Source: Escherichia coli (GTDB taxonomy: Bacteria > Pseudomonadota > Gammaproteobacteria > Enterobacterales > Enterobacteriaceae). From it: a stretch of DNA of 64,000 nucleotides. The position numbers and the translations under genes are program-made. Numbering within the stretch: position 1 is the first letter of the stretch; every line of letters starts with the position of its first letter. Positions 29,895 through 30,022 of the stretch are shown in pieces. The DNA is taken from assembly GCF_048403405.1 (NCBI RefSeq), contig NZ_CP183129.1. One strand, 5' to 3'. Below the pieces are notes generated by a model, which had not been told where the DNA came from, did no database searches, and worked only from the letters and a program-made list of their open reading frames with translations.

Positions 29895-30022
29895 TTGTGT
29901 ACCTGATTGCGAACCAATTTAGCATTTGTTGGCTAGATGGTTTCGCAATGAACTGTTAATAAACAAATTTTTCTTTGTATGTGATCTTTCGTGTGGGTCA
30001 CCACTGCAAATAAGGATATAAA
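29895..30022 (+). promoter_or_regulatory. thrS leader / translational operator (tRNA-Thr anticodon-arm mimic)
   Basis: Hairpin gtgatc-TTTCGTGTGG-gtcac at 29981-30001 presents a CGU triplet in the loop just upstream of the thrS start; ThrRS is known to autoregulate by binding such a structure. Confidence 0.6.

Follow-up and report, generated by a model that had tools for sequence, protein, structure and literature searches.

The thrS leader and its genomic context

The window analysed in this work is the whole stretch of 64,000 nucleotides taken from an Escherichia coli genome (contig NZ_CP183129.1, RefSeq assembly GCF_048403405.1), in which the genes thrS-infC-rpmI-rplT-pheM-pheST follow one another in the E. 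coli order. We focus on the 128 nucleotides (positions 29895-30022 of the window) that lie immediately upstream of thrS, the gene for threonyl-tRNA synthetase (ThrRS). A previous reading of the same DNA, made from the sequence alone, had pointed to a hairpin in this leader with a CGU triplet in its loop that mimics the anticodon of tRNA-Thr, and had taken this hairpin for the classic operator through which ThrRS represses its own translation. Our analysis supports the conclusion that the interval is, almost certainly, the translational operator of the E. coli thrS mRNA, acting via two mimics of the tRNA-Thr anticodon arm. The operator is thus not the single hairpin of the sequence-only reading, which had omitted a second one, domain 4, within the same interval.

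The identity of the locus is evident from several comparisons. A 401-nt query spanning the leader matches 5425 of the 5426 complete E. coli genomes, in each case at the annotated 5' end of thrS; 5350 of them carry the identical DNA beside an annotated thrS, and in a strain with 100%-identical DNA the RefSeq annotation reads espL1, thrS, infC, rpmI, rplT, pheM, pheS in the same order. The encoded protein matches PDB 1QF6 (crystal structure of E. coli ThrRS with tRNA-Thr) over its full length; it differs from its K-12 counterpart in one residue (G613S, thrS codon 613, window positions 31859-31861). The leader has no mismatch to that of K-12 MG1655 between -200 and +30, counted from the ATG, whose A is at 30023. 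With this 100% identity it is the same sequence that served to define the ThrRS operator, and the designation as the classic thrS operator stands. No tRNA genes were found in the window. The thrS operator has been known since the 1980s and was worked out, with its four domains, by the laboratories of Springer, Grunberg-Manago, Ehresmann, Romby and Moras. It is an already known element, and nothing reported here alters the accepted picture.

Two hairpins with anticodon-like loops

Folding with ViennaRNA places the CGU triplet in the loop of a hairpin that we assign to operator domain 2. Its upper stem has 7 bp (29981-29987 paired with 29995-30001) and its lower stem 5 bp (29975-29979 with 30005-30009), with U29980 bulged between them, and the loop comprises 7 nucleotides, UUCGUGU (29988-29994), in which the triplet C-33 G-32 U-31 takes positions 3-5, as in an anticodon loop. 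The same fold is obtained from the isolated 37-nt segment 29974-30010 and from the whole interval. The hairpin of the sequence-only reading (gtgatc-tttcgtgtgg-gtcac, 29981-30001) is indeed found at those bases upstream of the ATG, but its limits need correction: the two arms of 6 and 5 nt are unequal and the loop of 10 nt is too large, as the stem extends by the pairs C29986-G29996 and U29987-G29995. The domain ends 1 nt upstream of the Shine-Dalgarno (SD) sequence UAAGGA. Its fold boundaries coincide with the limits reported for domain 2, -49 to -13, and one of the PDB entries listed for the ThrRS protein sequence, 1KOG, is presumably the complex of the enzyme with this domain.

We compared the loop with those of the K-12 tRNA-Thr isoacceptors encoded by thrW (anticodon CGU, loop UUCGUAA), thrU (UGU, CUUGUAA) and thrT (GGU, UUGGUAA). 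The domain 2 loop shares its first five bases with that of thrW (5/7 identical positions), the mismatches being confined to positions 37-38. The leader as a whole is more stable than expected (z = -3.87, with 1 of 200 shuffled sequences as good), and so is the 37-nt domain 2 alone (z = -2.24). A search of both strands of the window for hairpins in which 7 or more contiguous pairs close a 7-nt loop of the type N-U-N-G-U-N-N returned only two, and domain 2 is the sole one on the plus strand.

The second hairpin, operator domain 4, appears in the minimum free energy (MFE) fold and consists of a lower stem (29906-29916 with 29938-29949), an upper stem (29918-29923 with 29932-29937) and an 8-nt loop, AUUUGUUG (29924-29931), which displays U-96 G-95 U-94 at 29927-29929. 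The motif UUGU is common to this loop and that of tRNA-Thr(UGU). An alternative pairing of CCAA (29914-17) with UUGG (29929-32) was considered and ruled out, as the covariation favours UUUAGC/GCUAGA. The remaining two domains are the A/U-rich linker between the hairpins (domain 3) and the segment with the SD sequence and the start codon (domain 1); the SD sequence is as stated in the literature (PMC3858243). Comparison of the interval with the described operator domains, a check proposed together with the sequence-only reading, shows that the sequences agree. On this basis the leader segment 29906-30025 merits annotation as a regulatory RNA feature, namely the translational operator of thrS.

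Conservation and covariation of domain 2

For the comparative analysis we used one genome per species and collected the thrS loci of the 80 closest of 555 matches, which together with the query gave 81 Enterobacterales. The set includes Escherichia, Salmonella, Citrobacter, Klebsiella, Raoultella, Enterobacter, Kosakonia, Buttiauxella, Cedecea, Dickeya, Rahnella and Rouxiella, and leaves out Yersinia, Serratia, Proteus and the Vibrionales/Pasteurellales. In the alignment of the region from -140 to +6 of thrS (A1, 81 species), columns are on average 92.6% identical in domain 2, 88% in the SD/AUG segment, 57% in the linker and 47% upstream of domain 4. For comparison, third codon positions of thrS reach 69.7%, and the parts of the leader that adjoin domain 2 range from 47 to 63%.

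All 12 base pairs of domain 2 are maintained (99.5-99.8% paired across the species), and six of them covary. In the upper stem, for example, the pair 29984/29998 occurs as A-U, C-G and U-A, and at 29981/30001 G-C gives way to A-U; the lower stem shows changes from U-A to C-G and from G-C to A-U. None of 500 shuffles matched the observed pairing or covariation, and slid partners were only 39-49% paired. Three U-G wobble pairs are kept, two of them in all 81 species and the third in 78. Since a conserved U-G pair can form neither in the complementary strand nor in a DNA palindrome, the structure is fixed to the plus-strand RNA.

In the loop, G-32 and U-31 are invariant (81/81), and the preceding base is C in 73 species and U in 8; the triplet is therefore always a threonine anticodon of the type NGU. 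The loop position equivalent to U33 of tRNA (-34, 29989) is occupied by U in 51 species, A in 25 and G in 5. As this position is not conserved, the mimic can apparently do without the U-turn base that is universally conserved in real tRNAs.

Two forms of domain 4

Analysis of domain 4 across the same species reveals two types of loop. Form A, with the consensus R-N-Y-N-G-U-N-G, is found in 30 of the 81 species, including E. coli and Salmonella. Here RNAalifold recovers the top of the hairpin, the 17 pairs are 84.7% paired (slid controls 28-48%) and 11 of them show compensatory change; G29928 and U29929 are invariant in all 30 species, the base before them being U, A or G. Form B, with a AGAGUGAA-like loop in which GU lies one position earlier, occurs in the other 51 species, including Klebsiella and most Citrobacter. 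Its loop variants (GAGGUGAA, AAGGUAAA, AAAGUAAA) all retain GU, which is invariant throughout the form, and its stem resembles that of form A in sequence (UUUCGC/GCGGGA and covarying variants, 94% paired).

Both forms are located equally far from the ATG (-101 to -105, about -103). Among the 81 species, they never co-occur within the 600 nt upstream of thrS, and no intermediates between them were seen. Both are found inside single genera, namely Citrobacter, Buttiauxella, Cedecea, Phytobacter and Superficieibacter. We advance, as a tentative suggestion that may well prove wrong, that domain 4 exists across Enterobacterales in two discrete, mutually exclusive forms at one position, and that this is possibly a new point; a literature search on comparative analyses of the thrS operator returned nothing relevant on such a dimorphism. 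If it has indeed not been described, one half of the bipartite RNA operator would seem to have been replaced repeatedly with retention of the GU identity bases, and the two forms might give different set-points of repression.

Form B was also sought in the 5426 complete RefSeq genomes of E. coli and found in none. It is carried by two GTDB representatives titled E. coli, L003 (CP089930.1) and L004 (NZ_JAATUR010000048.1), and in view of its absence from the complete genomes these two are probably atypical or mislabelled. The domain 2 loop of L003 is Salmonella-like (UUGCGUA).

A model of the regulation

In the following, ThrRS binding, its stoichiometry and its competition with the 30S subunit and tRNA are taken from the literature only; the present analysis provides the sequence and its identity with K-12, both structures together with their conservation and covariation, the invariant GU and the likeness to the tRNA-Thr loops. 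According to published work, domains II and IV of the four-domain operator are hairpins recognised by their likeness to the anticodon arm of tRNA-Thr (PMC11088916, PMC9976931), and ThrRS blocks binding of the 30S subunit (PMC11088916, PMC7373986, PMC3858243). A bipartite ribosome-binding site has its upstream half in the U-rich 3' part of the linker (PMC3858243, PMC11088916), and protein S1 assists docking of the thrS mRNA with its weak SD sequence (PMC3858243). When the enzyme is bound, its N-terminal part collides with the platform of the 30S subunit; the competition of tRNA-Thr for ThrRS completes the feedback loop (PMC7373986).

The published work and the arrangement found here together give the following course of events. 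Both loops would present G-U to the enzyme in the way in which the tRNA-Thr anticodon presents G35-U36, so that ThrRS in excess of free tRNA-Thr could bind the two hairpins as one homodimer, with one hairpin per anticodon-binding domain. Domain 2 adjoins the SD sequence and would thus lie in the middle of the bipartite ribosome-binding site (U-rich linker plus SD); because of this position, bound ThrRS would sterically prevent docking of the 30S subunit, and translation of thrS would fall. Competition by tRNA-Thr for the same sites would relieve the repression and tie the synthesis of ThrRS to how much tRNA-Thr is available, with ThrRS acting as both the regulated product and the repressor.

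Alternative explanations

Several observations weigh against the operator interpretation. The variable base at the U33-equivalent position makes the mimicry inexact, and the loop of domain 4 has 8 nucleotides and not 7 as in an anticodon loop. The MFE fold of the 128-nt interval pairs the SD region (30013-30021) with 29895-29904, in conflict with an unpaired SD sequence. Finally, an Rfam 15 scan of 27000-37000 (E<=1) returned no family for the thrS leader, i.e. no match to an independent model, and the transcription start of thrS was not located by a promoter and terminator scan of 29500-30100, which returned one weak promoter-like site (29582-29611) and no terminator. The lack of an Rfam model for such a classic cis-regulatory RNA could be remedied with the alignments A1-A3 of the 81 species, which could seed one.

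The anti-SD long-range helix was rejected, together with a 4-bp mini-hairpin that the same MFE fold places in the linker, as in the 81 species both are only 47-54% paired, a level that shuffled or slid controls also reach. This weak comparative pairing is consistent with an unstructured linker and SD/AUG segment, without proving it. No observation contradicts the reading of the interval as the thrS operator.

Among other explanations, the one that survives best, and that we nevertheless regard as very improbable, is that the hairpins are generic leader structures (e.g. a 5' stability element or a brake on ribosome loading) independent of ThrRS, with a coincidental CGU in the loop. Such hairpins do arise by chance, as the window contains 16 with at least 5 pairs and a 7-nt N-U-N-G-U-N-N loop (both strands, 128 kb), and most related leaders, taken one sequence at a time, have unremarkable z-scores. 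In a purely structural hairpin, however, nothing would keep the loop bases from drifting, whereas in domain 2 the GU is invariant in all 81 species and the base before it stays within NGU, and the second hairpin has an invariant GU in both of its forms; a generic structure does not explain such invariance in two loops. Furthermore, point mutations of the loop at -32/-31 reportedly abolish ThrRS-dependent repression without altering the stability of the hairpin. Exchange of the anticodon-like triplet for the methionine version passes the control to MetRS (PMC11088916, PMC7373986, PMC9976931).

It is extremely unlikely that the leader works as a T-box-like riboswitch or attenuator that senses tRNA, or as a transcription attenuator, and not as a protein-binding translational operator. 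Both kinds of control have a place in related contexts: thrS of Firmicutes is regulated by a T-box, and the nearby pheST operon of the window uses a leader-peptide attenuator. Against them, the Rfam scan returned no match besides Phe_leader, no intrinsic-terminator-like site is present in 29500-30100, the leader has no peptide rich in threonine codons, and the conserved hairpin adjoins the SD sequence, as translational control predicts.

There is next to no chance that a transcription factor uses the conserved inverted repeat as its DNA operator or that the region encodes a 106-aa antisense protein: dimeric DNA-binding proteins also bind inverted repeats, and an antisense open reading frame (ORF) does exist, but the conserved U-G pairs would be mispaired in DNA and would turn into A-C mismatches in an antisense RNA, and the ORF has the properties of an artefact. 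It is aligned codon by codon with thrS, and it owes its open frame solely to the absence of TTA, CTA and TCA from thrS codons 1-77. Over the overlap with thrS it is open in 62 of the 80 relatives and interrupted in the other 18, and its 3' third crosses the non-coding leader, which varies between species. A Pfam scan of its product gave no match, and RefSeq annotates no such gene on identical DNA. The sequence-only reading was thus right to call it spurious: this minus-strand ORF is an artefact of codon bias and should not be called.

Other features of the window

The coordinates of the operator domains and of other features in their surroundings are collected in Table 1.

Table 1. Features of the thrS leader and neighbouring parts of the window
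Feature	Position	Strand	Basis or remark
espL1/arpB homologue (type III effector)	27602..29500	-	split into ORFs 28019-29500 and 27601-28053
Operator domain 4, upstream anticodon-arm-like hairpin	29906..29949	+	MFE fold; RNAalifold; covariation
Antisense ORF, 106 codons, judged a non-gene	29933..30253	-	codon-aligned antisense to thrS codons 1-77
Operator domain 3, A/U-rich linker, probably single-stranded	29950..29973	+	sequence; 57% column identity
Operator domain 2, anticodon-arm mimic	29974..30010	+	ViennaRNA folds; pairing, covariation and column identity in 81 species
Anticodon-like triplet C-33 G-32 U-31	29990..29992	+	loop positions 3-5, as in an anticodon
Operator domain 1: SD UAAGGA (30011-30016) and AUG (30023-30025)	30011..30025	+	sequence; 88% column identity
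thrS coding sequence	30023..31951	+	ORF; annotated in RefSeq on identical DNA; matches PDB 1QF6 over its full length
infC	31955..32497	+	ATT start codon at 31955
pheST leader-peptide attenuator, including pheM	33317..33441	+	Rfam Phe_leader RF01859, 74.4 bits, E = 1.4e-11

Upstream of thrS, the homologue of the type III effector gene espL1/arpB is split by a frameshift at about 28053-28060, caused by one extra T in a run of T residues as compared with the intact espL1 of strain GN02461; this T is the sole difference between the two sequences over 1961 aligned bases covering espL1. In K-12 the homologue is also a pseudogene (arpB). Downstream, infC begins 4 nt past the thrS stop codon with an unusual ATT start codon, and for this reason a mechanical ORF list contains only a truncated, GTG-started ORF at 32063. 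The ATT is the known autoregulatory start codon of IF3.

Comparison with known systems

The element described here and the thrS operator of E. coli K-12 are the same, with identical sequence from -200 to +30 and the same gene context. Its two hairpins, putatively single-stranded linker and SD/AUG domain fit the published descriptions (PMC11088916, PMC9976931), there are no differences in the operator, and the only difference concerns the ThrRS protein (the G613S substitution mentioned above). Translational autoregulation through tRNA mimicry has its founding example in the thrS operator, and it is instructive to consider how far the mimicry extends. Like the anticodon arm of tRNA-Thr, domain 2 has a 7-nt loop on a stem, with the same U-U-C-G-U as thrW at positions 32-36, which includes the conserved identity bases G35 and U36. 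It differs in having G-U in place of A-A at positions 37-38, an unrelated stem sequence and 7 pairs plus a lower stem in place of 5 pairs. The operator has no acceptor arm and no D or T arms, and it departs from the tRNA also in the unconserved U33-equivalent and in the 8-nt loop of domain 4.

The T-box of Bacillus and other Firmicutes controls the same gene and likewise reads the status of tRNA-Thr through a structured 5' leader. The two systems differ in what is bound and in what is controlled: the T-box binds uncharged tRNA via a specifier codon and controls termination of transcription, whereas the thrS leader analysed here, which has no T-box match, mimics the tRNA, binds the enzyme and controls initiation of translation. 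A functional analogy among eukaryotes is provided by the yeast mRNAs of AspRS and HisRS and by the ThrRS-RPC10 case, in which a synthetase binds an element of the mRNA that resembles an anticodon loop and lowers its translation (PMC6542539, PMC9956033, PMC9976931), but the sequences are unrelated to those of the thrS operator, and the mechanisms that follow binding in the eukaryotic systems are different or less well defined.

Finally, the thrS operator can be compared with operators of ribosomal proteins, such as the pseudoknot of rpsO, the target of S15, and the L20 operator of rpmI-rplT, which belongs to the same operon as thrS. All these systems exhibit autogenous repression with a mimic of the natural ligand placed near the ribosome-binding site. 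The way in which the ribosome is affected is different: S15 acts by entrapment, holding the 30S subunit on the mRNA, and ThrRS by displacement, in competition with 30S binding (PMC3858243, PMC6524683).
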